DNA from: an uncultured bacterium
Lineage (GTDB): Bacteria > Patescibacteriota > Minisyncoccia > UBA6257 > 2-01-FULL-56-20
Reading direction: 5' to 3'
DNA: 64,000 bases
NCBI GenBank assembly: GCA_963844965.1
Contig: CAWJQC010000004.1
Location: 1 to 64,000 of the forward strand
A model generated the notes under the pieces. The model did not search any database and was not told the DNA's origin. It was given only the letters and a program-made list of their open reading frames with translations. The stretch's first letter is position 1; every line of letters begins with the position of its first letter. The translations under genes were made by a program, and so were the position numbers. Shown one piece after another: positions 6,286-52,784 of this stretch.

Positions 6286-6675
6286 CTACTTTTTTAAAAA
6301 TTGCCTGCTTATTCTTTTCCCCTCCAGATAAACTATAAAACTGCCTGTTTGATTGGCTAAATCCTCAAGTTTGCCGTTAATCCGGCTGAATTGCGCGCCG
6401 GAAATATAACCGACGGCTAACGCAACGTGAAGTTGGTTCCTTGTTTCGCCCACAGAACCCTTGGCGATTTTTAGGTAACGGATAAATTCATTGTTGTTGT
6501 TCTTTTCAAAACCCTCGGCAATATTGGAACTGATGGAGATAACGGCTCTTCTTATCTGATCGCGCAGACAAAAATCCCTGGAAAATTCTTTCTGGCTGGT
6601 CAAATCGTAAATTTCCTTCGTTATTTCCAAACTCAACTTCCAAATATTCAAATCCTCAAATTTAGTTATTCTCAT
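6286..6675 (-). CDS. Four-helix bundle protein (PF05635/TIGR02436, the 23S rRNA intervening-sequence protein family)
   Basis: 129 aa; typical ...ISISSNIAEGF..., ...KGSVGETRNQL... motifs; flanked by inverted CGAGTTAACGAG repeats (6251-6278 and 6688-6711). Confidence 0.8.
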   Translation of the reverse strand: MRITKFEDLNIWKLSLEITKEIYDLTSQKEFSRDFCLRDQIRRAVISISSNIAEGFEKNNNNEFIRYLKIAKGSVGETRNQLHVALAVGYISGAQFSRINGKLEDLANQTGSFIVYLEGKRISRQFLKK

Positions 6676-9312: not shown

Positions 9313-9881
9313 CTAGAGTTTTTTGTACTCAATAATTATCTCCTGTTTATCTTTCAGGACCAGATTCTCATATTCGGTGCTAGGTTTGCCGTCAACGGTC
9401 ATCGTGAGTTCATGATCGGCGTCGCGATAATAATCCATTATCCAGTCCTTGGAAAATCTCTCGCCCCAGACGGCGAAGAAATCCCCCAACGTGAACGGCG
9501 TATTATCATAGGGCTCTACGTCAATCGTTCCGCTCGCGTCGTCCGTGTGGATTATCCGCTCGCAATCCGCGGTGAGGCCAATGCCGGCCGGTATCGTGAC
9601 GCTCTTGCCGTTAACGATGATCGCGAGATGCGGATAGATGCGGTATTGCTGCGGAGGCGGATTCAAGAAACTCGCGCATGGCACTTCGTGGATGGCAGAG
9701 ACAGCCGTATTAGAGCTTGAAGCGGCGTTCGGCGTGCTGCTTTCTTCGGTCTCTACGGAAGGAGCCGTGCCGAAACTGGCATGCGCGAAAGTCCGCCCAA
9801 CCCCATGACCACGGTGAGACCCATGATGACCACGAGAACTATTGTGAGCGTTCTTTTGCCGCTGCCGCTTTTCTTTTTCAT
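9313..9881 (-). CDS. Hypothetical protein with N-terminal TM segment (MKKKSGSGKRTLTIVLVVIMGLTVV...); frame-shifted about 80 codons in
   Basis: ATG at 9881 overlaps the GIY-YIG stop as ATGA; downstream ORF 9313..9684 is in another frame. Confidence 0.4.
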
Positions 9882-10135
9882 CCCGTTAGAGACAGGAAAC
9901 GCTTTAACCTATTCTTGAGGTAGCGCTTACCCATGCCAGACTTTAAATATTTTTCTCTCGACTTTGCATCTTCCTCATTAAGACATGCTTCGTAATATAT
10001 CAGACGATACGGTCCATTATAGCTGGTATATTTCGATTTCCTTGCATTGTGGTCATTAAAGCGTTTCCGTAAATCCGAGGTATATCCTGTGTACCAACGT
10101 CTATTCTTATTTTCTAATACGTATACGTAGTACAT
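9878..10135 (-). CDS. GIY-YIG nuclease family protein (85 aa)
   Basis: N-terminal YYVYVLEN...RWYTGYTSDLRKRFNDHN is a GIY-YIG motif; gene lies between inverted repeats atcccgttagagac (9880-9893) and gtctctaacgggat (10146-10159). Confidence 0.8.
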   Translation of the reverse strand: MYYVYVLENKNRRWYTGYTSDLRKRFNDHNARKSKYTSYNGPYRLIYYEACLNEEDAKSREKYLKSGMGKRYLKNRLKRFLSLTG

Positions 10136-10199: not shown

Positions 10200-10640
10200 A
10201 TTCTATAACATAATCGCAAGCGGGTCTAATAACACCTTGCCAGGTCGCCTGCCTGCCGGTTTACCCGCCGAAGGAGGACAGGCAGGTCTAACGGCCCACG
10301 CACCAAAACAAAGTTTGGTACGGGGTAAATAGGACATCGGCCGGCGCGAAGTCCCGCATAAAGCTGCGGGGTCGTCTAACTTGCCCCGCCGCACTTTAAA
10401 AAATCAAAAATAAATTTCTTGCCAGTGCTGCCGGGTCGTCTAATGGTAGGACATCGGCCTTTGGAGCCGAGTATCTTGGTCCGACTCCAAGCCCGGCAGC
10501 ACTGGCCGGAAAAGTGCGGCGGGGTGAAGTAGGACACGGGCCTTTGGAGCCCGGTATGAAGGTTCGATTCCTTCCCCCTCAGCACGAGCCACCGCAGTAT
10601 AATCCGACCCTACTCGCCATAGGTCGAGGAAGGCCGGATA
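10200..10640 (+). repeat. Cluster of tRNA-like repeats and pseudo-tRNAs; GTAGGACA(T/C)(C/G)GGCC occurs three times, gtcgtctaa twice, plus a P1/P2 palindrome
   Basis: Recurrent tRNA D-arm and anticodon-arm-like segments; only one unit folds into a complete cloverleaf. Confidence 0.5.
10429..10499 (+). tRNA. tRNA-Gln (anticodon TTG), no encoded CCA
   Basis: Acceptor tgccggg/cccggca, 3-bp D stem gtc/gac, anticodon stem tcggc/gccga with loop ctttgga, T arm cttgg-tccgact-ccaag; unusual C55 in the T loop. Confidence 0.5.
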
Positions 10641-10648
10641 GAAAAATT

Positions 10649-11176
10649 TCAAAATTCTAACGTGAACTTCGCCCGTTCCCCTTTCTTGAACGGGTGTTTT
10701 ATTTCTTTCATTTCGGTCACCAAATCGGCCGCGCCAATAAATTCACGCGGCGCGTTGCGGCCGGTCAAAATCAAAATTTTACCTTCCGGAAAACTTTTTA
10801 TGGCGCGCAATACCCGCTCCGCGGAAAGCAACCCCAATTTCACCGCAACATTTATTTCGTCCAGGACCATCAAATGCCACTTGCCGCTTTTCAATTCCTT
10901 CGCAAAATATTTGAGCGCTTTCTCCGCGGCTTCAGCGTGTTTCTTCTTCGGCAGTTTATCGCCAAGTATTCCCACGAACCCCAAACCCATTTTCTTGATT
11001 GAAAATTGAAAATTGAAAATTGAAAATTTTTCCGCGAATTCATCTTCGCCCGACCGCCACGGCCCCTTGATGAATTGGATCATGAGCGCCGATTTTCCGC
11101 GCCCCAAAACCCGCACCATCTGCCCCAAAGCCGCGGTCGTTTTCCCTTTTCCGTTTCCCGTGAAAACTATTATCAT
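10649..11176 (-). CDS. btuR: Cob(I)yrinic acid a,c-diamide / cob(I)alamin adenosyltransferase (CobO/BtuR family)
   Basis: MIIVFTGNGKGKTTAALG...IQFIKG P-loop typical of CobA/BtuR; the CDS contains a gaaaatt x4 microsatellite (FSIFNFQFS). Confidence 0.7.
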   Translation of the reverse strand: MIIVFTGNGKGKTTAALGQMVRVLGRGKSALMIQFIKGPWRSGEDEFAEKFSIFNFQFSIKKMGLGFVGILGDKLPKKKHAEAAEKALKYFAKELKSGKWHLMVLDEINVAVKLGLLSAERVLRAIKSFPEGKILILTGRNAPREFIGAADLVTEMKEIKHPFKKGERAKFTLEF

Positions 11177-11185
11177 TTCTGTCGG

Positions 11186-11258
11186 GCCGCTGGGAATCGA
11201 ACCCAGTCTTTATCCGCCAAAGGCGGACAGGCGCACCCTCACCCCCACACCGATTGTA
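11186..11258 (-). ncRNA. tRNA-like 3' portion (anticodon arm with TTT, T arm ctggg-ttcgatt-cccag, acceptor 3' strand cggcccg) directly downstream of tRNA-Pro
   Basis: Lacks its own 5' acceptor; the complementary cgggccg lies at 11399-11405 on the far side of tRNA-Pro. Confidence 0.5.
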
Positions 11259-11263
11259 ATTTG

Positions 11264-11334
11264 TCGGGGAGCCGGGAATCGAACCCGGTCTTCACGCACC
11301 CGAAGCGCGCGTACTGCCGGTATACTACTCCCCG
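11264..11334 (-). tRNA. tRNA-Pro (anticodon CGG)
   Basis: Acceptor cggggag/ctccccg, D arm gtat-accggca-gtac, anticodon stem cgcgc/gcgtg with loop ttcgggt, T arm ccggg-ttcgatt-cccgg. Confidence 0.75.
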
Positions 11335-11405
11335 GTAAATTGGTGTGGGGGCGTGGCGCACGCCTGTCCGCCTCCGGCGGATACTACCGGTATACTACGG
11401 CCCGT
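11335..11405 (-). ncRNA. tRNA-like 5' fragment (acceptor cgggccg plus D arm tagtataccggtagta, nearly identical to the tRNA-Pro 5' half), followed by a tccgcc-ggag-ggcgga hairpin and an inverted-repeat arm caggcg...cccccacacc
   Basis: No T arm; its 3' tail is complementary to the head of the 11186-11258 fragment (ggtgtggggg...cgcctg). Confidence 0.5.
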
Positions 11406-11457
11406 TGTGTCTTTAGCTTACAGTAAACGACTTATCTGGTAAAGAATGCGGAAGGGA

Positions 11458-11889
11458 CTATGCCGTCCCCGTACTGCCGAACCCCCCGCGGGTTTTCTTG
11501 CCCATTTTTTCCACTTCTTTCCAGTCGGCTCTCGCGAATTGCACGAACATCCCCTGCGTTACGCGTTCGCCTTTTTCTATTACCACCGGCTTGTCCGTGA
11601 AATTGTAGTATGCCGACCTGAACTCATCCTCGTCGCCGCAAAAGTCGGGGTCAACGATGCCTACGCCATTCGCGAGCATCAGTCCCTTTTTATAAGTTGA
11701 GCTCCGTGCAGCCAAAAGTATAAAATGTCCGGCGGGCGCCTCTATCGCGACGTTCAGCGGCACAAAACGGATTTCCTTCGGCGGAATTTCCACGGCCTCG
11801 CGCGCGCACAGATCAAAGCAAGCCGCGCCATCCGTCTTATGCGCCGGCAGAGGCAAATCTTTATTAAACCGCCTTATTTTGACCAGCAT
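11458..11889 (-). CDS. dut: dUTP diphosphatase
   Basis: 143 aa; C-terminal GGFGSTG; dUTPase motifs. Confidence 0.85.
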   Translation of the reverse strand: MLVKIRRFNKDLPLPAHKTDGAACFDLCAREAVEIPPKEIRFVPLNVAIEAPAGHFILLAARSSTYKKGLMLANGVGIVDPDFCGDEDEFRSAYYNFTDKPVVIEKGERVTQGMFVQFARADWKEVEKMGKKTRGGFGSTGTA

Positions 11890-12486: not shown

Positions 12487-14040
12487 TTAAGCTCCGCGTC
12501 CGGCATTTTCCCTAACTCCTTGATCCTTTTCTTCCAGCTTCTCTTTTATGTTTCGCTTCGGGTCGTCCAGAACTTCTTCAAGTAAAACCGACAAGATGAA
12601 CCCCACTCGCGGGCCGGGCGGAATGTCCAAAATCTTCATCACGTCGTCGCCTTTAACTTTGAGCATCTTCGGCGAGATCGGGTCGTGCTTCACTTTTTCT
12701 ATCATGAACAAAAGATGGCGCAGCTTATATGGGAAAGCTTTCGGGACGCCGGAACCGATGCGGTCGGCCTCGCGCACTTTGAGCAAGTCGGGAACGTTCT
12801 CCGGGCCGACGCGCGCCAAAAACCTCCGTACGCCTGCTTCCGTCACTTCTCCCACGTTGTAGTAGAAAAGATGGTAGCGCACGAGGTGCACGACTTTTTC
12901 CGCGAAATCCTTTGAGAAACGCAGGCGGTCCAGAGCTTTCGCCGCCATTTTCGCGCCGATATATTCATGCTGATAAAAAGTTGAGTCGGGCCCCTCGCCT
13001 CTTTTTGACTTGGGCTTGCCGAGGTCGTGCAAAAGCGAAGCCAGCCGCACTTCAAGCGAATAATTTTGCTTTACGGCGTAATCAAGCGCGCGGATGTTGT
13101 GCTCAAAAACCGAATAGATGTGATGCTTGTTCTGGCCGACGCCGAGCCCCTCCCGCAGTTCCGGCAGGACATACTGGAGCAAATTCAATTCTTCCAAAAG
13201 CAGAATTCCCTGCGCGGCGCGCGGCGCCATTATTATCTTCTCAAACTCGTCGCGGATCCGCTCTTTGGCGACGGCGTCCAGCAGCGGGCTCAGTTTTTCT
13301 ATCGCGCGGCGCGTTCCCAAATCGATCTGCCAGCCAGAGGCTGGTCCGCCTCCGGCGGAAAAATCAACCCCTCGACTTTGCTCGGGGTTGGCTCGTTCAT
13401 CGAACGAGCCAAGTTCCACGGCGAACCGCACGGCGCGCATGAGACGGAGCGCGTCTTCGTTGAATCGCTCTTCCGGCAGGCCCACGGTGCGGATAATTTT
13501 ATCTTTCAAATCTTTCCGGCCGTCGTACGGATCAATGATTCCCCCAGCTGTCCACCTGACAAGACCCATTGCGATCGCGTTTATCGTAAAATCGCGCCGC
13601 GACAGGTCTTCGTCAATCGTTTTCGCGAAGGTGATGTAATCGGGATGCCGCTTGTCGGTATATTTCCCCTCTTCCCGGAAGGTCGTCACCTCTACCACTC
13701 TTGTGGTCGCAGATACTCGCGGACTTAACGCCGAATCACGCTGAAAACTTTCTGCGTTATTCTGCGTACTGTCTGCGTCCTTCCGCGGTGCGAGTTTAAC
13801 GAGCACAGTGCCGAAATCGTTCTCGTAAACCGTTGACGGATTTTCCGGCGTGCCGCCGTGGAAATTCAGAAACAATTCCTGCACTTTATCGGGCGTCGCG
13901 TTAGTCGCCACATCCCAATCTTTCGGTTCCCGCCCGAGCAAAAGGTCACGCACGCAGCCGCCGACAAGATAGGCCTCGTAACCCTTTTCGCCAAGCAACG
14001 CGCCGATTCTCTTTTACTTCTCCGGGAATGTCGTGTTTCG
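12487..14040 (-). CDS. cca: CCA-adding tRNA nucleotidyltransferase with C-terminal HD domain; N-terminus disrupted by a 1-nt indel in an AAAA run near 13995
   Basis: GYEAYLVGGCVRDLLLGREPKDWDVAT; upstream frame MERKTKHDIPGEVK continues the canonical N-terminus; carries an in-frame palindromic insertion (FSAGGGPASGWQ) at 13331-13368. Confidence 0.85.
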
Positions 14041-15600: not shown

Positions 15601-15680
15601 TGGACCCGCCGGGAATTGAACCGGGACCACTGCCTACCGGCAGGCAGGTCAGCAACTCCGCACATAAACTTGTCATAACC
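15601..15680 (-). ncRNA. Non-canonical tRNA-like element: encoded CCA and a T-arm-like segment joined to a P1 palindrome (ctgcctaccggcaggcag) in place of a normal D/anticodon region
   Basis: tggacccgccgggaattgaaccggg is the reverse complement of a tRNA 3' end; no full cloverleaf can be drawn. Confidence 0.35.
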
Positions 15681-16180: not shown

Positions 16181-16254
16181 TGGTGGACCCACCGGGAATT
16201 GAACCCGGACCTCGGCAATGCGAATGCCGCGTAATGCCGTTTTACTATGGGCCC
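16181..16254 (-). tRNA. tRNA-Ala (anticodon CGC), CCA encoded
   Basis: Acceptor gggccca/tgggtcc (one G-U pair), D arm gtaa-aacggca-ttac, anticodon cggca-ttcgcat-tgccg, T arm ccggg-ttcaatt-cccgg. Confidence 0.8.
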
Positions 16255-17181: not shown

Positions 17182-19416
17182 CTACTTCTCCAATTTCAGC
17201 GATAAAATTTTGGACGTCCCGTCCTCATTCAATGTCACACCATAGAGTATGTCCGCGACTTCCATCGTGGCGCGGTTGTGCGTCACGATGACGAACTGCG
17301 TGCGTTTGGCAAACTCCTTGAGCATTTCGGCGAACCGCCTCGCGTTCCGTTCGTCAAGCGCGGCGTCAATCTCATCCAAAACCAGGAACGGCGGCGGGCT
17401 CACGGAGATCAAGGCAAAGAGCGCGGCGATTCCCACCAAACTTCTCTCGCCGCCGGAGAGCATCTCCAGGGAATTCACCTTCTTTCTCGGCAGGCGCAAT
17501 TCAATCTCCACGCCGCCTTCTTCCTCCGGCTCTTCTTCCGCTCCTCCTGCGGTTTTGTTCTCGTCGGGAACTTCCTGCGCCTCTTCATCCGTCCCCTCTT
17601 GACTCGTGACGCTTGACGCCTGACGCTTCTCTATCTTCAACTTCGCGTGCCCGCCGCCGAACATCACTTCAAAAAACTTGCCGAACTCCTCGTTTATACG
17701 GACGAGCGCTCCGCCAAATTCTTCCTTTATCTTTTCGCTTAGGTCCTTGATTAATTTCCTCAAATCAACGACCGCTTCCTCCAAATCCGCGGATTCTTTT
17801 TTCAGGAATTCGTACCGGGTTTCCGTATCGTGGGCTTCCCTCATCAGCGCTTCGTCTATTTCACCGATGCTCGCCAGGTCGCCACGTAATTTGAAAATTC
17901 TGCGCTCAATCTCTGGTAAATCTGTCTGAGCAACTATTTCTCCGCCAGAGGCGGATCCGCCTTCGGCGGAAAATTCGCGCGAATTACGCCCGGCTTGCGT
18001 TATCTGCCTCTCCAACTCCTCGCGCCTCAGCTCCAGACGTTCCTTTTCAAACAGAATTTCGCGATTTCGCGCCTCCCACTTCTCTATCTTATCCTTTACG
18101 GCCTCCACTCCCGAAACCGCCGTTTTAAAGGCGTGATAAAATTCCTCCTGATTTTTCTCCAACGCTTTCTCCTTATTTTTGAGATCAATCAATTCTTTCT
18201 CAAGCGCTTCCAGGTCGCGGTTAACTTTTTCAAATTGCGATTCTAAAGCGGGATTCGGCTCGGGCTTCGCCTTTGCCGCGCCGCTTTCTTTTATCTTTCC
18301 GCCTAAAATCTCTTCAATTTCCTCTATTGCGCTCCGTATCGCTTCCTGCATCTCAATCATGTCGCCGCGGAGGCCGTTCTCAAGCGTGCTCTTTATCCTT
18401 TTCACGAGTTCAAGTAATTTCGCGGAACTTGCGGCCTGCCCCGAATCGCCGCGGGGAGCGGCCGCCTGCGACATTTCTATCTGCGCCTCGATCCGTCCGA
18501 GTTCCTTCTGCAGCTGGCCCTTTTTGCCGAGCAGCTCCTGCGTCTGCTCTTTTATCTTTTCAATATCCCTTCTTCCTTCGGGCTGGCTCGCTTCCACTTT
18601 CGCCTGTTCCGCCTCCGCGGCTTTTTTCTCTCTTTCAAGAACCGCGAGCTCGCCGCGGTTCGCACCCGACTTTTTCTCCACATCGGCAAGACCCGTTCTG
18701 ATATCTTTAAGCTGGCTGCCGAAAAATTGATTCTCCAGATTTAGCAATTCTTCCGCGTACTCGCCTCGTTTTTCCCAGCGCGAGGTCTGGCGTTTCAACG
18801 ACCGGAGATGCGGCAGAATTTCCTCAACCAACGCTTTAACTTTATCCAAATTTATCTGGCTGTTTTTGAGCCGCCGCTCGGCGTCCGTTTTTTTAAGCTG
18901 ATATTCCCGAAGCCCGAGCACCTCTTCTATCATTTCCCGCCTCTCTTTCGGCGAAACGCGGATAAAAACGTCGCTGTTGCCTTGCGTCACGACAACAAGC
19001 CCGCGCGAGCCGAGCCGCGCTTTGGCGAAGAAATCAACGAGGTCGCGGAGTAGAATTTCCGACTTGTTCAAAAAGTAGCGGCTCGTGCCGTCGCGCCGGA
19101 TTTCGCGCATGACGGAAACCTCGGCAAAATCCACCGGGAAAAAATTATTGGCATTCTCAAAGTGCAAACTCGCCTGCGCCTGTCCCAGGCGCGGGCGCTT
19201 CGCCGTGCCCGCGAAAATCAAGTCGTCAATTCTGCCGCCGCGCAAACTTTTTGCGTCGCGCTCGCCGAGTAACCAGCGAATGGCGTCAACGACATTGGAC
19301 TTGCCGGAACCATTCGGCCCGACTATCGCCGTAATCCCTCCCGGAAACTCCAAAACCGTCTTCCCGGCGAAGGACTTGAAACCGTTTAATTCTAAGCGTT
19401 TGAGAAAGTGGGGCAT
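17182..19416 (-). CDS. smc: Chromosome segregation protein SMC (short form, 744 aa)
   Basis: Walker A GPNGSGKSN, coiled coils, signature LSGGERSLVGIAALFAL, Walker B VLDEIDAALDE; in-frame palindromic insertion FSAEGGSASGGE at 17942-17973. Confidence 0.85.
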   Translation of the reverse strand: MPHFLKRLELNGFKSFAGKTVLEFPGGITAIVGPNGSGKSNVVDAIRWLLGERDAKSLRGGRIDDLIFAGTAKRPRLGQAQASLHFENANNFFPVDFAEVSVMREIRRDGTSRYFLNKSEILLRDLVDFFAKARLGSRGLVVVTQGNSDVFIRVSPKERREMIEEVLGLREYQLKKTDAERRLKNSQINLDKVKALVEEILPHLRSLKRQTSRWEKRGEYAEELLNLENQFFGSQLKDIRTGLADVEKKSGANRGELAVLEREKKAAEAEQAKVEASQPEGRRDIEKIKEQTQELLGKKGQLQKELGRIEAQIEMSQAAAPRGDSGQAASSAKLLELVKRIKSTLENGLRGDMIEMQEAIRSAIEEIEEILGGKIKESGAAKAKPEPNPALESQFEKVNRDLEALEKELIDLKNKEKALEKNQEEFYHAFKTAVSGVEAVKDKIEKWEARNREILFEKERLELRREELERQITQAGRNSREFSAEGGSASGGEIVAQTDLPEIERRIFKLRGDLASIGEIDEALMREAHDTETRYEFLKKESADLEEAVVDLRKLIKDLSEKIKEEFGGALVRINEEFGKFFEVMFGGGHAKLKIEKRQASSVTSQEGTDEEAQEVPDENKTAGGAEEEPEEEGGVEIELRLPRKKVNSLEMLSGGERSLVGIAALFALISVSPPPFLVLDEIDAALDERNARRFAEMLKEFAKRTQFVIVTHNRATMEVADILYGVTLNEDGTSKILSLKLEK

Positions 19417-19418
19417 TC

Positions 19419-20108
19419 TTATTTATATCTTTTCAGCGCTTCTTTCGCCGCCTCCAACTCCCCTTCCTGTTTTGAGGCGCCGACGCCTTCGGCGATGAAT
19501 TCATCGCCGAAAAAGACGCCGATTCTGAAAATCCGCTTGTGCGCCGGGCCGGACTCGTCCAGAACCTTATATGTCGGCGTCACCTTGAGTTTTTCCTGCA
19601 CAATTTCCTGAAGTTCGCTCTTTGAATCCTTATAGCTCTTCGTTTTCATAATCGTGCCGAGGTTTGTCATCACGAATTTGCCGACGAAATTGCGGACGAC
19701 CTCCGTTCCTTGGTCAAGATAAATCGCGCCGATCACGGCCTCAATGGCGTTCGCGAGAATTACCTCGCGCGCCTTGCCCGTATCTTTTTTCTCGCCCCGA
19801 GAAAGCAAAATGAAATCGTCCAAGTCGATTCCCTCGGCGACTTTTGCCAGCGTCTGGTAATTCACGAGCGCCGCGCGCAAAACTGTCATCTGACCCTCCG
19901 GATAATTTGGGAACCTACTAAAAAGCTCCTCGGAAACTATAAGTTCCAGAACAGCGTCGCCCAAAAACTCCAGCCGCTCGTTGTGCGGCAGGCGCCAGTT
20001 CGGAAATTCGTTCAGATAGGAACGATGCGTCAGCGCCTCCGTTGGTAAATCCTTGTTTTTAAATTGTATTCCGATCTTTTGCTCAAATTTATCTAATTTC
20101 GGCGGCAT
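19419..20108 (-). CDS. rnc: Ribonuclease III
   Basis: ERLEFLGDAVLELIVSEELF RNase III signature plus C-terminal dsRBD. Confidence 0.9.
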   Translation of the reverse strand: MPPKLDKFEQKIGIQFKNKDLPTEALTHRSYLNEFPNWRLPHNERLEFLGDAVLELIVSEELFSRFPNYPEGQMTVLRAALVNYQTLAKVAEGIDLDDFILLSRGEKKDTGKAREVILANAIEAVIGAIYLDQGTEVVRNFVGKFVMTNLGTIMKTKSYKDSKSELQEIVQEKLKVTPTYKVLDESGPAHKRIFRIGVFFGDEFIAEGVGASKQEGELEAAKEALKRYK

Positions 20109-21203: not shown

Positions 21204-21317
21204 TTGTTTCCATTTTATTGCACTATCCAAGAAACGTCAACCTGCGAAGGCAACTCCAATTATATCGTTGTATAAAACAAAAAAGCGGCGGAATTCGTGT
21301 CCTCGCCGCATGAACCC

Positions 21318-21345
21318 CCACACCTATGCATAGGTGTGGGGGTGA
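21318..21345. repeat. Perfect 28-bp palindrome cccccacacctatgcataggtgtggggg after gene 21348..21758
   Basis: Self-complementary; the cccccacacc motif recurs in the tRNA-Pro locus inverted repeats. Confidence 0.7.
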
Positions 21346-31762: not shown

Positions 31763-32340
31763 TTGCGTGGGCAGTCGTGAATTTTACGCGGAAATGAACT
31801 TCCGCGCCGATCTGCGTTATGTCTGCGCTTGTCTGCGGTTGAACTTCGCCCGATATCTGAAAAAGAGCTTTTTAGTTGTCCCAACCTATCATGAAACACG
31901 CAACCTGAAACATGGAACATTACAAAATGTTTCATGCTTCATGTTTTATACTTCGTGCTTCACGTCGACTAACTATTTGTTAATAGTTTAATTGATCCAC
32001 GGGCAGCTTCCGCTACTCGTGCCTTGTTACGACTTATCCCATGTCACCGAGCTTAAGCTAAATCGCCTGAGGCGATCTTCACCTACTCCCGGCTCCCTTG
32101 GATTGACGGGCAGTGAGTACAGGACTCGAGAACGTATTCACCGCAACATAGCTGATTTGCGATTACTAGCGATTCCAGCTTCATGAGGGCAGGTTGCAGC
32201 CCTCAATCCGAACTGAGACCGGGTTTGATGGGATTAGCTCCGCCTTGCGACTTCGCAACCCATTGTCCCGGCCATTGTAGCACGAGTGTAGCCCAGGGCA
32301 TCAGAGGGCCATGCTGATTTGACGTCATCCCCTCCTTCCT

Positions 32341-32439
32341 CCCCGCTCAGAAACCACGAGACATGAGACACACGTCACGACTCACAAATTTATTGTGCAT
32401 CGTGCTACGTGTATCGTGCATCATGAACTCTGAGCGGGG
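32341..32439 (-). other. 16S intervening sequence 1: about 100-nt hairpin insertion closed by an 11-bp stem (ccccgctcaga/tctgagcgggg) in the helix 39/40 region
   Basis: Sequence between the conserved 1100 and 1190 blocks replaced by a self-complementary insert. Confidence 0.7.
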
Positions 32440-32511
32440 CAGTTTCGCGTGACACTTGTAACACACGATAGGGGTTGCGCTCGTTACCCCACTTAAGGGA
32501 ACACTTCAAAG

Positions 32512-32542
<31 letters not shown>

Positions 32543-32669
32543 ACGTGACGTCCTTGAGAGAGGGCCCGCCTTTCGGCAAGCTTTCGTCACGAATTTCAAG
32601 CCCTGGTAAGGTTCCTCGCTTACTGTCGAATTAAACCTCATGCTCCACCGCTTGTGCGAGTCCCCGTCT

Positions 32670-32701
<32 letters not shown>

Positions 32702-33161
32702 TCCCAGGCGGCCGACTTAACGCGTTAGCTCCGCCACTCCGAGGGTCGATACTCGAAACAGCAAGTCGGCATCGTTTAGGGCGTGGACTACAAGGGTATC
32801 TAATCCTTTTTGCTCCCCACGCTTTCGCGTCTCAGAGTCAGGAAGGTCCCAGTGCCATGCCTTCGCCTTTGGTGTTCCGCACGATATCAACGGATTTCAC
32901 CCCTACACCGTGCGTTCCAGGCACCTCTAACCTCCTCTAGTTTCGCCGTATCTCCTGCACTTCCACCGTTAGGCGGTGGGATTTAACAGAAGACGCACGA
33001 AACCTCCTACACGCTCTTTACGCCCAATAAATCCGGATAACGCTCGAGGTCTACGTATTACCGCGGGTGCTGGCACGTAGTTACCAACCTCTTTCCGTAT
33101 GGTACGGTCACCCAGCACTTTTGGAACGAACTTTTCTAATTTGCTCAAATTTTTGGAGGTA

Positions 33162-33190
33162 TTGACAACAGCAATCACTTCTGCTATAAT
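33162..33190 (+). promoter_or_regulatory. Perfect consensus sigma70 promoter (TTGACA-17-TATAAT) inside IVS-2, oriented antisense to the rRNA
   Basis: ttgacaacagcaatcacttctgctataat. Confidence 0.6.
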
Positions 33191-33269
33191 GCCCATAGCA
33201 CATTGGGAGACCAACGTGCCGCACGTCGGGCCTCAGCCCTTGTGCAATTCCCAAAAGGAGAATTGATTT

Positions 33270-33461
33270 ATGCGTGCCAAATTCCCGTCACAAGTCACGG
33301 ATCGAATACTGGAAGCAGCCAAGAAAGAGTACTCCTTCCAGATCAATCATGCGGAATTAGGGCGGCGGCTGTTTACGCGCAAGCACTGTGGCACGAGAAT
33401 GGTTCAGGTAAAAGTCTTTCTGCAAGGAAGACAACAACCTGCCATACTCGGAAAACAATAA
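33270..33461 (+). CDS. 63-aa ORF inside 16S IVS-2, antisense to the rRNA (MRAKFPSQVTDRILEAAKKEYSFQINHAELGRRLFTRKHCGTRMVQVKVFLQGRQQPAILGKQ); has its own promoter, SD and terminator
   Basis: SD aaaaggagaa 6 nt before ATG; intrinsic terminator ctgccaccagaagctttccggtggcag plus TTTTTT at 33543-33575. Confidence 0.45.
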   Translation: MRAKFPSQVTDRILEAAKKEYSFQINHAELGRRLFTRKHCGTRMVQVKVFLQGRQQPAILGKQ

Positions 33462-33542
33462 CCACAGATGCACGGACGCCGCAGTATGCCCCGTTTGTTT
33501 GCTGGCATATGTCATGACTAACGACTAGCTGCCACCTTTCTA

Positions 33543-33575
33543 CTGCCACCAGAAGCTTTCCGGTGGCAGTTTTTT
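33543..33575 (+). terminator. Rho-independent terminator of the IVS-2 mini-gene
   Basis: 11-bp GC-rich stem followed by a T6 run. Confidence 0.6.
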
Positions 33576-34434
33576 AAATCCAAAAATTTGAGCAAATTAG
33601 TTTTCCCGCCAAAAGTGCTGGGTTCTTCCCATACTACCGCAGTTTACAACCCGAAGGCCTTCTTCCTGCACGCGGCGTCGCTCGATCAGGCTTTCGCCCA
33701 TTGTCGAATATTCTCGGCTACTGCCACCCGTAGGTGTACGAACCGTTTCTCAGTTTCGTCGTTGGGGGTCAGGCTCTCACCTCCCCTACCGGTCATAGCC
33801 TTGGTAGGCCGTTACCCTGCCAACTAGCTGATCGGACCTAGGCCGCTCTTGGAGCGTCTTGCGACTTTGGATGCGAATGGCTTTCGCCCCCGCATCATCA
33901 TCAGGAATTACCCCGCCTTTCGGCGAGCTGTGCCCGTCTCCAAGGTACGTTACCAAGGTGTTACTAACTCGTTCGCCGCTCACTATTTTCCTTGCGGAAA
34001 ATAGTTCGCTCAACTTGCATGCCTTATCCACGCCGCCAGCGTTCATCCTGGACCAGGATCAAATCCTCAGTAAAAATCGCGCATTTATTCAATACGCGAG
34101 ATTGTGCGCCATGCATGACGCCCAAACTCGCGCATCTCACTCGTGCGTGAGTTCATACCGCGATTGATTTATTGATCTCGGTTTATTTCAATTCCAAACC
34201 GAAAAATGAATCTTATTGGGACAACTAAAAAACTCTTTTTTATTTACTTTTCTCATATTAATTTTTCAATCTGCAGTCGGCGCAGTCCTTTACCCCGCAC
34301 ATTACCTTCGGTAATAACGGGGCGAGCAACAAAACATCCCCCCTACACATTCTAAACCTCAGAAGAATGTGTAGGGCGGATGTCTTTAGACACACCATAA
34401 TATTGAGATATCAAACCTATCCGTTTTCCATATT

Positions 34435-40794: not shown

Positions 40795-42252
40795 CTATGC
40801 CTTTGACTTTTTAATTCCCAATCCTAACTCATTCAATTGTTTTTTGTCCACATCGCTCGGCGAACCCATCATCGGGTCATAGCCCTCGCCAGTTTTCGGG
40901 AATGCAATAACTTCGCGGATGTTCGGCTCGTTTTGCAAAACAGTAACCAGGCGGTCAAGTCCCCAGGCGATGCCGCCATGCGGCGGCGCGCCGAAACTCA
41001 GCGCCTCAAGCATGTGCCCGAACTTCGCCTGTATCTCCGTGTCACTGTAGCCCATAATACTAAACACTGCCTTGAGTGCTTCGGGCCTGTGATTGCGCAT
41101 ACTGCCGCCGCCGATCTCCAGTCCGTTCAAAACAACATCGTATTGGCTTGTCAAAATTCCGGCAATATTTTTCTGCGCCAGCAAATCATCCATAAACTCC
41201 GGCTTCGGCGCGGAAAATGGGTTGTGCGTAAAAGTCCATTTGGTTTTCTCTCCGCCAGAGGCGGATCCCTGCCCGCCGGCAGGCGCGGCGCCTTCGGCGG
41301 AAAAAAACGGAAAATCAATTATCCAGCAAAAAGCCAAAAGGTTCGGGTCGTTCTTATCCTTCCGTAAATCCGGCCGGTCGGTTTTATATTTTTCAGCAAC
41401 ATCTTTATAGCTCAGACGCGGGAAAGGAATTTCCTGAATTTTTTTGTCCGGATAGAGGGTCTCCACTATCTTTATCAGAAGTTCTTCGTTTATCGCCATC
41501 ACATCCTCGCGTTCCACGAAGCTCATCTCCAGATCAAGTTGCGTGAATTCCGGCTGCCTGTCTCCTCTTGTGTCCTCGTCGCGGAAACAACGGGCAATCT
41601 GGAAATATTTTTCCAATCCGCCGACCATCAAAAGCTGTTTATACTGCTGCGGCGACTGCGGCAAAGCGTAAAACTGTCCTTTGAAAATGCGTGACGGCAC
41701 AAGATAATCGCGTGCGCCTTCCGGCGTGGATTTTGACAGCACCGGCGTTTCTATTTCCAAAAATCCTTTCCCATCCAGAAAATCTCGTATTAACTTGATT
41801 ATTCTGTGCCGCGAAATCAAGTTTTTCTGCAAGCGCGCGCGCCGCAAATCCAAATATCTGTATTTCAGGCGGGTTTCCTCGTTGATCTCGTAACCGTCGG
41901 CGTCAACGGAAATCGGCGTGGCTTCCGAGCGATTCAGGATTTCCAGTTCGGTCGCGCTGACTTCATAGTGACCGGTCGGCAACTTGTCGTTCACCATCGC
42001 CGGCGGCCGCTTCTTGACCTCGCCTTTCACTCGCACGACATATTCCAGCCGCAGGTCGCCGGCGCCTGATAATGATGGCCCTCCGCCAGAGGCGGATCCG
42101 CCTTCGGCGGAAAAAACGACCTGCGCTAAACCGCTCCGGTCGCGGAGGTCAATAAAAACCAATTTCCCGTGGTCGCGCCGCGCGTGAACCCAACCGCAAA
42201 GCTCAACTTCTTTGCCTTCGTTTTTTATGATTTCTGATACAGATACCCGCAT
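40795..42252 (-). CDS. aspS: Aspartate--tRNA ligase, archaeal/eukaryal-type short form (no GAD domain)
   Basis: Class II aaRS motifs, N-terminal OB fold; 485 aa; two in-frame palindromic insertions (42083-42114 and 41262-41304). Confidence 0.85.
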   Translation of the reverse strand: MRVSVSEIIKNEGKEVELCGWVHARRDHGKLVFIDLRDRSGLAQVVFSAEGGSASGGGPSLSGAGDLRLEYVVRVKGEVKKRPPAMVNDKLPTGHYEVSATELEILNRSEATPISVDADGYEINEETRLKYRYLDLRRARLQKNLISRHRIIKLIRDFLDGKGFLEIETPVLSKSTPEGARDYLVPSRIFKGQFYALPQSPQQYKQLLMVGGLEKYFQIARCFRDEDTRGDRQPEFTQLDLEMSFVEREDVMAINEELLIKIVETLYPDKKIQEIPFPRLSYKDVAEKYKTDRPDLRKDKNDPNLLAFCWIIDFPFFSAEGAAPAGGQGSASGGEKTKWTFTHNPFSAPKPEFMDDLLAQKNIAGILTSQYDVVLNGLEIGGGSMRNHRPEALKAVFSIMGYSDTEIQAKFGHMLEALSFGAPPHGGIAWGLDRLVTVLQNEPNIREVIAFPKTGEGYDPMMGSPSDVDKKQLNELGLGIKKSKA

Positions 42253-43096: not shown

Positions 43097-43604
43097 TTTT
43101 GTTGCTGGCAATCCGTAAGCCGGATTCTGTCGCGCCTGCCTGTCGGCAGACGATGCGATCATTTATCTGGGCCCTTGATTGCTCGCGGGCTCAAGCGGCA
43201 CTTCCACCTCATCGGCGGACACGGCCTTGCACCCAGTAAGGATTTAGCCGTTTCATCTCCACTTTTTTATCCCTATGGCGGAGCTGGACCGACTAGCTTG
43301 GGATTGGGTCCGTCCGACTTTTTCAAATCGGACCGTTTCTGCTCGCACCTCTATTCTTACGAACGACGGCTGTTAGCCGCTACTATTTTATCCCTCCCCA
43401 GTTTTGCCAGTAATGTCACTGGCAAAACTGGGGAGGGATGGTGTCCGGACTTTCCTCCCTACATTTTCTAGAATTTTAAGAAAATGTAGGGCGATCGCCT
43501 AGATTGCCAGCTAACTACAGTGTAACATTCTATCAAAAAAAATCAAGTCCGGAAGCAGTGTTCGCGACTAGCCGGTGATATTTTAATTCACGGCGGACAT
43601 ACCT

Positions 43605-49635: not shown

Positions 49636-51424
49636 TTAAACGGTCCCTCGGGGTGACGCGCGGAACGCAGCCTCAACATCCAGGTCCTCCCAGCCGGCTT
49701 TCTTCAATTCGCCGCGAATCACGTCGTCCACAAACGCGGCGGCGCGGGCGGCCCTGATATATTCCACGAGCTCCGGATTCTGGGAACCGGCTTGGGTTGA
49801 TTTCACTTCCGCGGCCGGAGAAGCGGCGGTTGCGGCGTCCGCGCTAACTTGCCGCGCGGCTTCAGGGTTCGCCGCTGAAGCCGCTGAATTGTTTTTCTCC
49901 GCTTCTTCCCGCGTCGCCTCATGTTTTATAAGTTCTTTCTCTTCCGTCTCCAGCTTCACTATTTCCTCCTCCTCTTTTTTCATCCGCTTGCGAAGCATGA
50001 CTACGACAAACGCCGCTATTATCAGAACCAACACTCCGCCGCCCGCGATAAGCCACGCGGTGAGTCCGACTCCGCTCAGCCGCTCCTTTATGACATCCCA
50101 TGGCGTATCAAGCGACCCGCCCGCGGCGATAAGCGCCGCGCACTGCTCTATATACGGGTCAGCGTATTTGTTTACGGAGAATTTCGCGTCGGAATTCTCG
50201 GCTATCTTGAATTGCTCCGTCGCTTTCTTGCACTGCTTGGCGTGCAGAAGCGCGAGACCCTGTTCCATTGAATCGGTGAAGCCGCTTGTATCGTTTTTCA
50301 GCGACTGTGCGTCAAGCGCGGCTTTCGCCAGTTCAACCGGAACGGCGGATGCGAAATTATCCCCTAAAATGTCGCTGAGCCCCGATTCAAATGTCACCAA
50401 ACCAATGACCTCTCCGTCAGCTCCGAAGAGCGGCCCTCCGCTTGAACCTTCGGAGATCTTCGCGTCCGATTGCAATATTTTGAAATCCTTATTTTGGGAA
50501 TCTTTGATGGCGGTTATCACTCCCTGTGTGAACGTCGGCTCAAGATAATCTTGCGACCCGATACTGGGCCGTACCCGGAAAGCCAAACACGTAAATTTTC
50601 TGGCCGACAGCGGCCAACGCCGAAGCGCCGAGCTTCATGGCCGCGAGGTTACTTTCGCCAATCTTAAGAATAGCGACGTCCTTGTCGTCAAGGTTGTAGT
50701 TATCATTCACGCTCAAAACCGTTGCCGGAAACGAATCTTTGATAAGTTCGGTGAGTTTTTGTTTCGTTGATGTCGGATTCAGCACGACGACCTCCCGCAA
50801 GATGTCAAAGCGGCTGTTGGCTTCCAGGGCGGATAAAATTTTCTTTCCATATTCTTCTCCCATGCTTTCCGCATCCAGCGAGTCAATCCCTTTATCTTTA
50901 TAATACTTTTCCAAGTCCTGTATTTCATTCGGTTTCAAGGAGAACATTTCTTTGAATATCACCGACGTCATAGCCGCGCCGAGTATCGCCTGCCGCATGG
51001 TCTCTTCCGAAACAACATGGGAGTTTGTGAGGACCAGGCCGGATGGATTCACGACGAAACCGCTGCCCGCGAGATACTGCTCCGTGGAAGTGCCGTTAAC
51101 GGCGCCTGATTTCGGAAACGACACGGCAAACGTTCGGAGGTCAATGCTAAAATCGGGCACCGTTGAGGTTACCAGGAAATGCGTGAGCACCCGAACAATG
51201 GACGGCTTCGTTATGTCCGCCAATTCCTCTTCGCTCATCGCGAGCGGCTGCGGCGTGGGCATGCTCCAAAGATCGGAGAGCGACGCCGTCCCCGATCTCC
51301 CACCGCCGGGCAAACTGCGGAGAGCAACGGCGCCCAAAAACGCCGTGCTCACAAAAAGCGCGACCAAAAACAAAAAGAGCGGTAGCCATATCCGTCCACC
51401 TTCCCTACCGTTGCCGATAAATGG
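49636..51424 (-). CDS. Trypsin-like (S1) serine protease with N-terminal TM anchor, C-terminal TM plus coiled-coil/charged tail; frame-shifted near 50560
   Basis: GSGFVVNPSGLVLTNSHVV (His region) in ORF 50540..51514; GSSGGPLFGADGEVIGLV (Ser region) in ORF 49636..50586. Confidence 0.7.
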
Positions 51425-51562
51425 CATGTATAAATTATAACAAACCCGGAATGAGCCTGGCACTTCACGACAACTTAAACGTGGGTCTGAATTAACTCGT
51501 TCAAATCCAGCCAAAACTTAACCCGTTGCCCTAAACACTTCGTGTCGGGCAGCTAAAACAAA

Positions 51563-51596
51563 AAAGCAGGCGATTCACCTGCTTTTTTGTTTTAGG
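51563..51596. terminator. Bidirectional intrinsic terminator (aaaaaagcaggcgattcacctgcttttttgtttt) just 3' of tRNA-Thr(GGT)
   Basis: GC-rich hairpin flanked by an A run and a T run. Confidence 0.6.
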
Positions 51597-51599
51597 CTG

Positions 51600-51672
51600 A
51601 GCCGATGGCCGGATTTGAACCGGCGACCTACTCCTTACCATGGAGTTGCTCTACCAGCTGAGCTACATCGGC
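51600..51672 (-). tRNA. tRNA-Thr (anticodon GGT)
   Basis: Acceptor gccgatg/catcggc, D arm tagctcagctggtagagca, anticodon actcc-atggtaa-ggagt, T arm gccgg-ttcaaat-ccggc. Confidence 0.8.
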
Positions 51673-51808
51673 GAACTTAGTCCCGACGCGCTTCGGGCAT
51701 CGGTTTAAGTTTACTATTACGAAAACGCACAGTCAAAACACCGTGTTTTTATCCCGTCACACGGTCCTCATTTCTGGCGTGCCGGTGATTCTTCAAAAAT
51801 AGCCCGGA

Positions 51809-52060
51809 CTAGGCGGCACCGGCCGTGTCGGATTTGTCCTTGCTTATGCCGAGCTTGTTCATTAAACCCTTTCTCGTTTTCTCCAGCTCGGGCAACAGCA
51901 CTCGGTCCTCTACCGTAGAATTACCGGCTCCCATCCACATGTTCAATTCTGCAATCCGCTTCTCAAGATTCTTAAGCTCGGCTATATCGGCCTCGCGCCT
52001 TGCCATTTTTGCCTCATCCTCTAACCTTTTTTCTTTTCGTTCAAACCATCCCATAAACAA
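51809..52060 (-). CDS. Hypothetical coiled-coil protein
   Basis: 83-aa ORF. Confidence 0.4.
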   Translation of the reverse strand: MFMGWFERKEKRLEDEAKMARREADIAELKNLEKRIAELNMWMGAGNSTVEDRVLLPELEKTRKGLMNKLGISKDKSDTAGAA

Positions 52061-52142
52061 ATGTTAGCAAGCAAACGCCACAATATCAATATTTATGCCT
52101 ACGCGTCTTATTTAAACCGAACTGTTTTACCCCACACTTTCC

Positions 52143-52180
52143 GCCGAATGAGCCGAGGAGAGGAGTCGAACCTCCAACCT
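52143..52180 (-). ncRNA. tRNA 3' fragment (T arm ggagg-ttcgact-cctct, identical to that of tRNA-Leu, plus acceptor 3' strand cctcggc) directly downstream of tRNA-Thr(TGT)
   Basis: No room for a 5' half before the adjacent tRNA; a complementary acceptor strand gtcgagg lies at about 52402-52408. Confidence 0.5.
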
Positions 52181-52212
52181 ACGGTTTATCCCGATTTTGC
52201 AAAATTTGCCTT

Positions 52213-52284
52213 GAGCCGGCGGTCGGATTTGAACCGACGACCTGCTGTTTACAAAACAGCTGCTCTGCCGCTGAGCTACGCCGG
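52213..52284 (-). tRNA. tRNA-Thr (anticodon TGT)
   Basis: Acceptor gccggcg/cgccggc, D arm tagctcagcggcagagca, anticodon gctgt-tttgtaa-acagc, T arm gtcgg-ttcaaat-ccgac; flanked by direct repeats ttttgcaaaat (52187-52199 and 52289-52300). Confidence 0.8.
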
Positions 52285-52329
52285 CAATTTTTTTGCAAAA
52301 TCGCGGACTCGCGATATTGTAAGCAAATC

Positions 52330-52408
52330 GTAGATTTGCACAATATCGGAGCAAAACCGTTGCTCCCTGCCCCGCACCGAGCTTTGCTCTGGTGCGCGGG
52401 TGCCATTG
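52330..52408 (-). ncRNA. tRNA-like 5' fragment (acceptor gtcgagg plus D-loop-like tagttcaatggca) followed by two hairpins
   Basis: Hairpins ccgcgcacc...ggtgcggg and ggagcaa-cggtt-ttgctcc; acceptor complementary to the 52143-52180 3' fragment, with one G-U pair. Confidence 0.4.
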
Positions 52409-52520
52409 AACTACCTCGACAAATATGCCTGAACCCAAAAATTATTCTAACAGAAAATTGAAAAATCGGCAATTTTCATCAAAAAAGCCCCGCGCTCGAA
52501 GCACGGGGCTACTCAAAATA

Positions 52521-52784
52521 TCATTGCGCCAATACCTTGTTAGGTTGAGCAACTTGCCGTCTCCCGGTGTATCCCCTGATCTCACTCAGCCCGGCATAAA
52601 TGACGTGACCAACCATCAATTCCGGACGATCTTCGTCCATACCCCCTACAAACTCACAGGGAAAACCGGCTCCCATAACAAGCTGGCAAGCATCCCTTGA
52701 TTCGTTTGACACTCCAAAGATCAGAAGGGCTTCATCTCTGATGGGGATTTCTGTTGCCATTACAAGTCTCCTTTCGTAATTCAT
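52521..52784 (-). CDS. Hypothetical protein
   Basis: 87-aa ORF. Confidence 0.35.
   Translation of the reverse strand: MNYERRLVMATEIPIRDEALLIFGVSNESRDACQLVMGAGFPCEFVGGMDEDRPELMVGHVIYAGLSEIRGYTGRRQVAQPNKVLAQ

Follow-up and report, generated by a model that had tools for sequence, protein, structure and literature searches.

A complete tRNA-Pro(CGG) gene nested in the anticodon loop of a second tRNA-Pro(CGG) gene: probable insertion of a palindrome-bounded cognate-tRNA cassette in a Patescibacteria genome

Transfer RNA (tRNA) genes are usually viewed as passive targets, and the introns and integrating elements that enter them must splice out again or rebuild the end of the gene. Phages and genomic islands integrate into tRNA genes while carrying a copy of the displaced tRNA segment, the split and permuted tRNAs of Nanoarchaeum equitans, Caldivirga and Cyanidioschyzon, found in archaea and algae, need a bulge-helix-bulge motif and a splicing endonuclease, and the intron of archaeal tRNA-Trp encodes a C/D box small RNA, with the host tRNA being spliced and functional. 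Short palindromes lie scattered through genomes as Rickettsia palindromic elements (RPEs), REP-like repeats and mitochondrial GC clusters, and we know of no family among these that carries a tRNA gene. Patescibacteria are rich in group I introns of tRNA genes at 35/36, and the paper describing these makes no mention of nesting (PMC13011429). Here we describe a nest, a complete tRNA-Pro(CGG) gene lying between the two parts of another tRNA-Pro(CGG) gene, at positions 11404-11182 on the minus strand of contig CAWJQC010000004.1 from an uncultured bacterium; the window referred to throughout is the whole 64-kb stretch of DNA that was analyzed. We consider it likely that this nest reflects the clean insertion of a palindrome-bounded cassette with a cognate tRNA into a resident tRNA-Pro gene, the outer gene now being a relic. 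In the literature searched we came across no tRNA gene lying within another, cognate or otherwise, and the nested cognate arrangement, which is real and recurrent, is apparently undescribed.

Calling of tRNA genes with ARAGORN and Rfam (tRNA RF00005, gathering score 29) returns only the inner tRNA of the nest, and the outer gene goes undetected by both as it stands across 11404-11182. The inner tRNA-Pro(CGG) (11263-11334, minus strand) is complete, as a sequence-only reading of this DNA had claimed, being called by ARAGORN and scored at 52.3 bits by Rfam with all pairs standard. Its sequence runs CGGGGAG...CTCCCCGA, with a 7-nucleotide (nt) anticodon loop TTCGGGT having U33 and G37, a C1-G72 pair, A73 and no encoded CCA. 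It is part of a 114-nt cassette (11239-11352, minus strand) composed of a left arm GCCCCCACACC, the leader AATTTAC, the inner tRNA, the trailer CAAATTACAATC and a right arm GGTGTGGGGGTGA, within which the tRNA keeps about 7-12 nt of its own leader and trailer and no open reading frame (ORF) was found. The cassette's own ends are GC-rich inverted arms of 11-13 nt (CCCCCACACC/GGTGTGGGGG).

The outer gene is distributed around this cassette on the same strand, which the sequence-only reading had correctly given for all the elements it listed, with limits (11405-11186) that needed a small correction. Outer nt 1-24 (11382-11404, minus strand) read CGGGCCG-TA-GTATACCGGTAGTA and comprise the acceptor 5' strand, TA, and the D stem and loop GTAT-ACCGGTA-GTA, while nt 25-34 (11353-11362, minus strand; CGTGCGCCAC, or C-G-TGCGC-CAC) comprise the 5' strand of the anticodon stem, loop positions 32-33 and C34. 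Past the cassette, nt 35-41 (11232-11238, minus strand) read GGGTGCG, that is, GG as anticodon bases 35-36, GT, and GCG starting the 3' strand of the anticodon stem, and nt 42-73 (11182-11212, minus strand) read TA-AAGA-CTGGG-TTCGATT-CCCAG-CGGCCCG-A, covering the variable region, T arm, acceptor 3' strand and discriminator A. Between nt 24 and 25 lies block 1 (11363-11381, minus strand; TCCGCCGGAGGCGGACAGG), 19 nt consisting of the mini-palindrome TCCGCC-GGA-GGCGGA and CAGG, and between nt 41 and 42 lies block 2 (11213-11231, minus strand; CCTGTCCGCCTTTGGCGGA), 19 nt consisting of CCTG and the mini-palindrome TCCGCC-TTT-GGCGGA; block 2 is the reverse complement of block 1 apart from the loop. 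What had been read as an anticodon arm (TTT) and as a second ccgcc/ggcgg hairpin is thus one object, the palindrome at 11227-11213, and the suggestion of a Lys-like tRNA falls with it, since TTT is the 3-nt loop of a repeated palindrome; the true outer anticodon is CGG, interrupted as C34 | G35 G36.

The relatedness of the two genes is evident from a repeat finder, which matches the outer 5' fragment with the inner 5' half at 82% identity (28 nt, repeat D2) and the outer 3' fragment with the inner 3' half at 76% (46 nt, repeat D1). The complementarity noticed between the far ends of the nest is borne out, as the outer acceptor strands pair at 7/7 positions (11404-11398 with the 3' strand CGGCCCG). 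Inverted-repeat pairs of 23 nt at 91% and 19 nt at 84% complementarity were found, and blocks 1 and 2 extend the inverted repeat to about 45 base pairs (bp). The RNA of 11410-11180 is predicted to fold into a stem of ~45 bp with the inner cloverleaf as cap, closed by the 7-bp outer acceptor stem (-139 kcal/mol, z = -8.3, with 0/200 shuffles folding as well).

Virtual excision, in which the delimited inserts are removed in silico and ARAGORN is run on the remainder, carries the argument that the arrangement is not due to chance. Removing block 1, the 114-nt cassette and block 2 from the window leaves CGGGCCGTAGTATACCGGTAGTACGTGCGCCACGGGTGCGTAAAGACTGGGTTCGATTCCCAGCGGCCCGA, called as a 72-nt tRNA-Pro(CGG), and places the cassette between outer anticodon bases C34 and G35 with zero bases duplicated or lost. 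Accordingly, the proposal of a very large insertion that brings one tRNA into another holds at the gene level, by virtual excision and by the single intact gene of the closest relative. The restored gene is 93% and 91.5% identical to the intact genes at relatives' loci L004 and L013, respectively, and 87% identical to the gene of the nearest relative, L003 (codes L001-L043 designate the loci from relatives that were compared with the window). The outer 5' fragment begins where the single tRNA of L003 begins, behind a shared leader. Because excision restores a tRNA-Pro(CGG) and its position matches that single tRNA, we take the outer gene to be the resident tRNA-Pro(CGG) gene, disrupted. We infer that it is now a relic that has lost decoding and would supply the promoter, leader and 3' flank; even restored, it has A33 (positions 32-33 are CA in the window and TT in relatives), and the two inserts, blocks 1 and 2, lie within its stems. 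The putative promoter and leader block of the resident tRNA (11415-11443, minus strand) consists of TTTACC (11443-11438), a 17-nt spacer and TAAGCT (11420-11415), and in an alignment it is kept in the window, L003, L007 and L011. It scores under threshold in a sigma-70 scan, and its role as a promoter is a tentative one.

The inner and outer tRNA-Pro genes are homeologous, at 84.5% identity, and their acceptor- and T-stem differences are paired, which argues that the inner gene evolved as a working tRNA elsewhere and is no fresh local copy. An origin of the inner gene by local tandem duplication or self-duplication is disfavored for the same reason, inner/outer identity being 84.5% in this nest and 74.6% and 69.4% in two further nests, of Gln and Thr tRNAs, with paired stem differences.

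The Pro nest is flanked by a dUTPase gene (dut), which lies upstream and has its homologues in Patescibacteria, and by a cobalamin adenosyltransferase homologue. Across relatives, the locus holds either one tRNA or a nest, and the tandem intact tRNAs with which the sequence-only reading had also reckoned were not seen. The site is empty in the closest relative, L001/L003, whose dUTPase matches that of the window at 94% identity as protein and 89.6% as DNA; the leader is followed there by one ordinary tRNA-Pro(CGG), and one plain tRNA-Pro gene is also found in L004, L010, L013, L016, L019-21, L035 and L036. Nests are seen in three other lineages, one of them clean with the same cassette and two with a different inner tRNA-Pro; the outer gene is decayed where the nest is older, and the inner gene is canonical throughout.

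The clean nest comes from L011/L012 (dUTPase 74% identical in protein; two separate runs) and has no mini-palindromes. Its order is outer CGGGCCG-TC-GTATAGTGGCAGTAT-A-CACGC, then CGC, the cassette with the identical inner tRNA, and AGGT-GCGTG-CGGT-CTGGG...CGGCCCG-A, and its restored outer gene has the anticodon CAG. A second type of nest is shared by L007, L008, L009 and L014 (dUTPase 75%; four independent assemblies with contigs of up to 412 kb), which has a homologous right junction and block 2, but another left hairpin; the loop of its block 2, TCC, is the exact complement of the block 1 loop GGA of the window. Its outer gene has an anticodon loop of 6 nt, a T loop that holds a 31-nt hairpin and an acceptor stem with 2 mismatches, and its inner tRNA-Pro(CGG), here called type C, is 73.6% identical to the window inner gene (type A). 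A metagenome scan with the right junction gave matches to the L007 lineage only. In L040 (dUTPase 70%), the nested gene is type C and is placed 5' of an outer anticodon arm that is intact; its flanks are unrelated, and the region folds no better than shuffles (z = -1.07).

Two further observations concern the L007 lineage. The dut DNA of L007 and L011 is 97% identical, yet their nests and inner tRNAs differ (L007 3487-3755 compared with L011 2509-2697), and the outer 5' half of L007 is identical to the type A inner tRNA of L011 and the window, which could have come about through serial nesting followed by deletions between direct repeats or through gene conversion.

With respect to the cassette, we observe that it differs far less between window and L011 than its surroundings do: identity reaches 93% in the cassette core and 72/72 in the inner tRNA, compared with 73% for dut DNA and 62% for the leader, while the outer 3' part is identical at 25/25 positions and the outer remnants abutting the cassette differ between the two alleles. 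The arms of the Pro cassette recur once without cargo as a stand-alone hairpin directly past a stop codon (21314-21343, minus strand; ACCCCCACACCTA-TGCA-TAGGTGTGGGGGT, 13 bp); the same cassette is found in L011 and L012, and no more copies occur among the loci compared. Since the core is conserved beyond dut and leader, the abutting remnants differ and the arms recur as a lone hairpin, the cassette behaves as a unit. Furthermore, its conservation beyond the surroundings, the differing nests of L011 and L007 and the closer match of the restored outer gene to L004 and L013 than to L003 together show that the locus is exchanged or invaded independently of the genome around it.

The cassette has terminal inverted repeats, the arms GCCCCCACACC and GGTGTGGGGGTGA (inverted repeat I2), and no target-site duplication, excision restoring the 7-nt anticodon loop in the Pro and Thr nests. 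Of the earlier idea of a hairpin-bounded mobile element, the palindrome-bounded cassette stands, while the ccgcc/ggcgg hairpins cannot serve as its ends, being missing from L011. An integrase-borne island is not indicated either, as the insert encodes no integrase and no directly repeated tRNA 3' segment was found at its far end. Three other candidates were considered and rejected. A phage or plasmid origin received no backing, as the inner 5' half has no exact match in viral contigs and the 222-nt locus has no blastn match among phage records; a tmRNA or two-piece tmRNA is contradicted by a chance-level Rfam score (tmRNA_permuted, 17.2 bits near the Pro nest) and by an acceptor that is Pro-type, not Ala-type; and a Y RNA-like molecule (YrlA) likewise reaches only a chance-level Rfam score (15.8 bits near the Thr nest).

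The Pro nest does not stand alone, as 3/8 tRNA genes in the 64-kb window are nested, and all three nests are cognate (Pro in Pro, Gln in Gln, Thr in Thr). In the Gln nest (10366-10582, plus strand), a complete tRNA-Gln(UUG) at 10429-10500 lies in the D loop of an outer tRNA-Gln(UUG), flanked by a perfect 14-bp inverted repeat (CCCCGCCGCACTTT/AAAGTGCGGCGGGG); the fold has an energy of -118.8 kcal/mol (z = -7.85), and ARAGORN calls tRNA-Gln(UUG) after virtual excision. In the Thr nest (52151-52420, minus strand), tRNA-Thr(UGU) at 52285-52213, flanked by the inverted repeat GATTTTGCAAAA/TTTTGCAAAATC, interrupts an outer tRNA-Thr(UGU) precisely at nt 35/36 (fold z = -7.1), and virtual excision gives a tRNA-Thr(UGU) with the loop TTTGTAA; the outer gene also has a ~30-nt hairpin in its D loop. 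It is these excision tests that are the real evidence for nests, rather than a crude acceptor-plus-T-arm scan, which gave 7 long matches vs 0.7 in shuffles and is lax, some matches being cross-combinations of neighboring tRNAs. Across all loci compared, the duplex energy of the flanks ranges from -5 to -27.5 kcal/mol for plain tRNA genes and from -28 to -83 kcal/mol for nested ones, and complementary flanks as a clade-wide trait of tRNA genes can be rejected on the weak pairing of the former. The cobalamin adenosyltransferase homologue was also considered as context for the Gln nest, and it proved uninformative, its close homologues lying in another, tRNA-free neighborhood.

Some side observations were made on tRNA genes and their neighbors. 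A small stand-alone protein with a GIY-YIG nuclease domain (85 amino acids, Pfam E = 7e-15; 9878-10135, minus strand) is encoded ~230 nt from the Gln nest. A tRNA-Ala-like relic consisting of a T arm and acceptor 3' strand, GGTCCCGGTTCAATTCCCGGCGGGTCCAC (15601-15640, minus strand), lies ~580 nt downstream of an intact tRNA-Ala(CGC) (16181-16254), with a GC hairpin before it and a small membrane-protein ORF between; a second GGTCCACCA end is present at about 16046-16038, and the relic may be a 3' end displaced by a larger insertion. In L027 (343-526; Buchananbacteria), a tRNA-Asn 5' fragment with GC hairpins in its D loop and a duplicated leader sits directly upstream of an intact tRNA-Asn(GTT), and this is a tandem partial duplication rather than a nest.

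The mini-palindromes of blocks 1 and 2 belong to a wider population, the 15-nt palindrome TCCGCC-NNN-GGCGGA being present in 9 copies in the window vs 0.38 expected. Since the L011 clean allele exists without either block, they form a separate, later layer on the nest and are not element ends. In-frame copies occur at four sites in long ORFs of the minus strand, SMC and the CCA-adding enzyme having one each and a 489-amino-acid protein two. The peptide SAEGGSASGG is encoded in SMC and in both sites of the 489-amino-acid protein, of which one is intact and the other interrupted ('SAEGAAPAGGQGSASGG'). In the CCA-adding enzyme the peptide is SAGGGPASGW, and a 68%-identical homologue of this enzyme has no insert. 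The mini-palindromes behave like REP/RPE-type repeats, and their in-frame presence in housekeeping proteins points to an active hairpin-inserting process in the lineage. No transposase for them (e.g., RAYT) was seen among the 20 ORFs of the window scanned with Pfam.

The copies in frame in such ORFs, often as a 30-nt double hairpin, lie at 13330-13359, 17941-17970, 41251-41301, 42082-42111 and 58040-58054, and at 41251 one hairpin is itself interrupted by another. In L042 (300-470) and L043 (190-355), which represent a relative sampled together with L007, the cobalamin adenosyltransferase homologue begins MIIVFTGNG and is then broken by ~110 nt of GC-rich hairpins that precede the frame predicted by the gene finder, indicating that hairpins have been inserted into coding regions in related lineages too. 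As for structural RNA genes, the 16S ribosomal RNA gene (31985-34074, minus strand) measures 2,090 nt vs a 1,533-position model, with ~550 nt of insertions, and is also consistent with Patescibacteria; the RNase P RNA gene (43101-43510, minus strand) measures 410 nt vs 367 and scores 100.2 vs an Rfam threshold of 100; and the window holds no 23S gene and has a 23S-IVS protein gene at 6286-6675.

We propose the following course of events for the inserted cassette. The inner gene would be a working tRNA, transcribed probably from the resident promoter-like block TTTACC-N17-TAAGCT, and the transcript would form the long stem with the inner cloverleaf as cap, from which RNase P and a 3' nuclease would free the inner tRNA, to be finished by the CCA-adding enzyme, as no CCA is encoded. 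The long stem is plausibly an RNase III substrate on the modeled fold, and if RNase III cleaves it, the outer halves would be by-products; genes for the CCA-adding enzyme (12487-13998) and RNase III (19419-20108) lie nearby. At the DNA level, the cassette may be one of many palindromic elements that enter exposed hairpin loops with no target duplication, and a hit in a single-copy tRNA gene would survive only when the cargo is cognate; in this proposal, such selection is the reason why all three nests of the window are cognate. A nested allele could then spread between lineages by recombination via the outer halves or, if the inner and outer direct repeats recombine, revert to a plain gene, and the symmetric blocks 1 and 2 may have arisen by hairpin-templated strand switching from arm to arm. 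The lack of a target duplication disfavors DDE transposition and end-joining capture, and compatible routes would be single-strand transposition of the HUH type, site-specific recombination between hairpin loops, or insertion at the RNA level with reverse transcription.

Several points weigh against the insertion reading. The outer gene of the window is strikingly intact, its acceptor stem pairing at 7/7 and its D and T arms unaltered, which could indicate either a very recent insertion or some kept role. The cassette could be linked to no transposase, integrase or reverse transcriptase, nor did a free or circular copy turn up. The Pro, Gln and Thr cassettes share no sequence, and the type C inner tRNA (L007, L040) has unrelated flanks, so that no single element family with conserved ends is involved. 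The chimeric outer gene of L007 demands extra events, whether serial nesting with deletions or gene conversion, and the selection filter for cognate pairing presupposes many failed insertions that are unobservable. That the Pro, Gln and Thr tRNA genes are single-copy is presumed, the tRNA genes surveyed in this genome being those of the 64-kb window, and both the RNA processing and the inactivity of the outer gene are predicted from sequence.

A bolder extension is that such cassettes form a new class of protein-free selfish element, each a palindrome-bounded unit with a whole tRNA gene, which cleanly enters an exposed loop of its own cognate tRNA gene with no target duplication, makes the host dependent on its cargo, spreads horizontally among Patescibacteria and re-invades in the manner of a Russian doll. 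We put this forward tentatively and hold it to be possible rather than probable; re-invasion of the working copy would explain why the outer 5' half of L007 is the inner tRNA of L011 and the window.

The best-surviving rival has the nest kept by selection as a scaffold for RNA processing or stability, with outer halves that are functional and non-decoding, offering entry points for RNase P, RNase III or the CCA-adding enzyme, or else protecting or regulating the inner tRNA. It would account for the intact outer acceptor stem (7/7), D arm and T arm of the window, for several G-U pairs in the long stem, which pair only in the minus-strand RNA, and for extra hairpins in outer genes that are often found in a loop, as in the T loop of L007 and L040 and the D loop of the Thr nest, and it is in keeping with the persistence of the nest across several lineages and the presence of an RNase III gene. 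We nevertheless regard it as unlikely. The closest and most other relatives have a plain gene without complementary flanks, L007 and L040 have a degraded outer structure, blocks 1 and 2 break the stems of the outer tRNA, and the two loop C-to-T changes that make G-U pairs are too few as proof of selection.

Far less credible is an outer gene that is still a functional tRNA-Pro(CGG), either interrupted by an intron, with RNase P and RNase Z excising the inner tRNA and a ligase rejoining the outer halves, or split and held together by the long stem. The insertion sites 34/35 and 35/36 are indeed typical of bacterial tRNA introns (PMC13011429), excision leaves an anticodon loop of exactly 7 nt in both the Pro and the Thr nest, and the arms bring the halves together in the fold. 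However, no group I core is found by Rfam at E <= 10 in 10300-11600 or 51300-52700, the insert is 114 nt, and with the inner tRNA cut out, ~40 nt of arm sequence would remain in the loop. The predicted fold contains no bulge-helix-bulge, but a helix that is almost unbroken, having a single 1-nt bulge, a single mismatch and no paired 3-nt bulges 4 bp apart, and the halves are contiguous in normal 5'-to-3' order, which also speaks against the permuted tRNA that had been offered as an explanation. In addition, blocks 1 and 2 disrupt the D and anticodon stems, and the same anticodon is already provided by the inner gene. The decay of the outer gene in relatives disfavors an intron and a split tRNA alike: in L011 the outer gene is a Pro-bodied tRNA reading CAG, and in L007 its acceptor is broken beyond rescue by splicing.

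Independent tandem tRNA genes damaged by indels, the pairing of the far ends being mere family resemblance, are more improbable still. In favor of this view, Rfam aligns 11252-11182 as a weak complete tRNA (22.7 bits) and the Gln right arm with the outer 3' part (10515-10582) as another (32.8 bits), and the Gln right arm TGCGGCGGGG resembles the 5' acceptor strand of tRNA-Gln. Yet the Pro arms have no similarity to tRNA-Pro halves, excision yields one canonical gene with nothing left over, relatives show a single gene at the site and no array, and tandem copies do not predict arm complementarity over 11-45 nt. Finally, a metagenome assembly artifact (a fold-back or a strain chimera at a repeated tRNA) can be given almost no credence, for although the sequence is of metagenome type and palindromes and repeated tRNAs are hard for assemblers, nests occur in independent samples and assemblers (L007, L008, L009, L014; L011 and L012 in two runs), and three of them lie in one window with junctions that are base-exact relative to tRNA structure.

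By contrast with elements that must splice out or rebuild a gene end, the Pro insert brings a complete replacement gene, and such nests are found at three tRNA genes of the 64-kb window and, in several lineages, at the Pro locus. Should the process be general, it would constitute a route for horizontal tRNA-gene replacement in very small genomes, a source of tRNA pseudogene halves that annotation misreads (as when Rfam scores an arm and a half as a weak tRNA) and a new case of selfish DNA offsetting the harm that it does. The nest is also a natural setting in which to test how a tRNA buried in a 45-bp stem is handled by RNase P, RNase Z and RNase III.

Among known systems, the nests resemble the group I tRNA introns of Patescibacteria in phylum, in the anticodon-loop site at 34/35 or 35/36 and in a clean insertion with no target duplication (PMC13011429). 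Unlike these introns, the Pro nest has no ribozyme core, its insert is 114 nt long and its cargo is a cognate tRNA gene; moreover, the outer gene is unrestorable in relatives, and one nest lies in a D loop. As with integrative elements, incoming tRNA sequence makes the insertion harmless and partial tRNA repeats flank the insert, but here a whole tRNA gene arrives rather than a 3' segment, in 114 bp with no integrase, and the outcome is a nest (5' half, insert, 3' half) instead of an intact chimeric tRNA with a distant 3' repeat. Similar to split tRNAs, the halves lie apart and complementary GC-rich stretches could join them, whereas the host is a bacterium, the halves are contiguous in normal order with no bulge-helix-bulge, and the joined product is not needed. 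The archaeal tRNA-Trp intron is matched in having a second RNA gene within an anticodon-loop insert that would be released by processing, and differs in that the guest here is a cognate tRNA, not a guide RNA, and the host looks defunct. RPEs, REP-like repeats and GC clusters share with this locus the short palindromes, here in a reduced genome, in frame in protein genes, in RNA genes and nested in one another, although the blocks and arms, at 15-30 nt, are far shorter than RPEs, and the likeness to RPE/REP is one by description. The locus thus departs in at least one defining feature from each of group I introns, integrative elements and the archaeal split tRNAs and tRNA-Trp intron.

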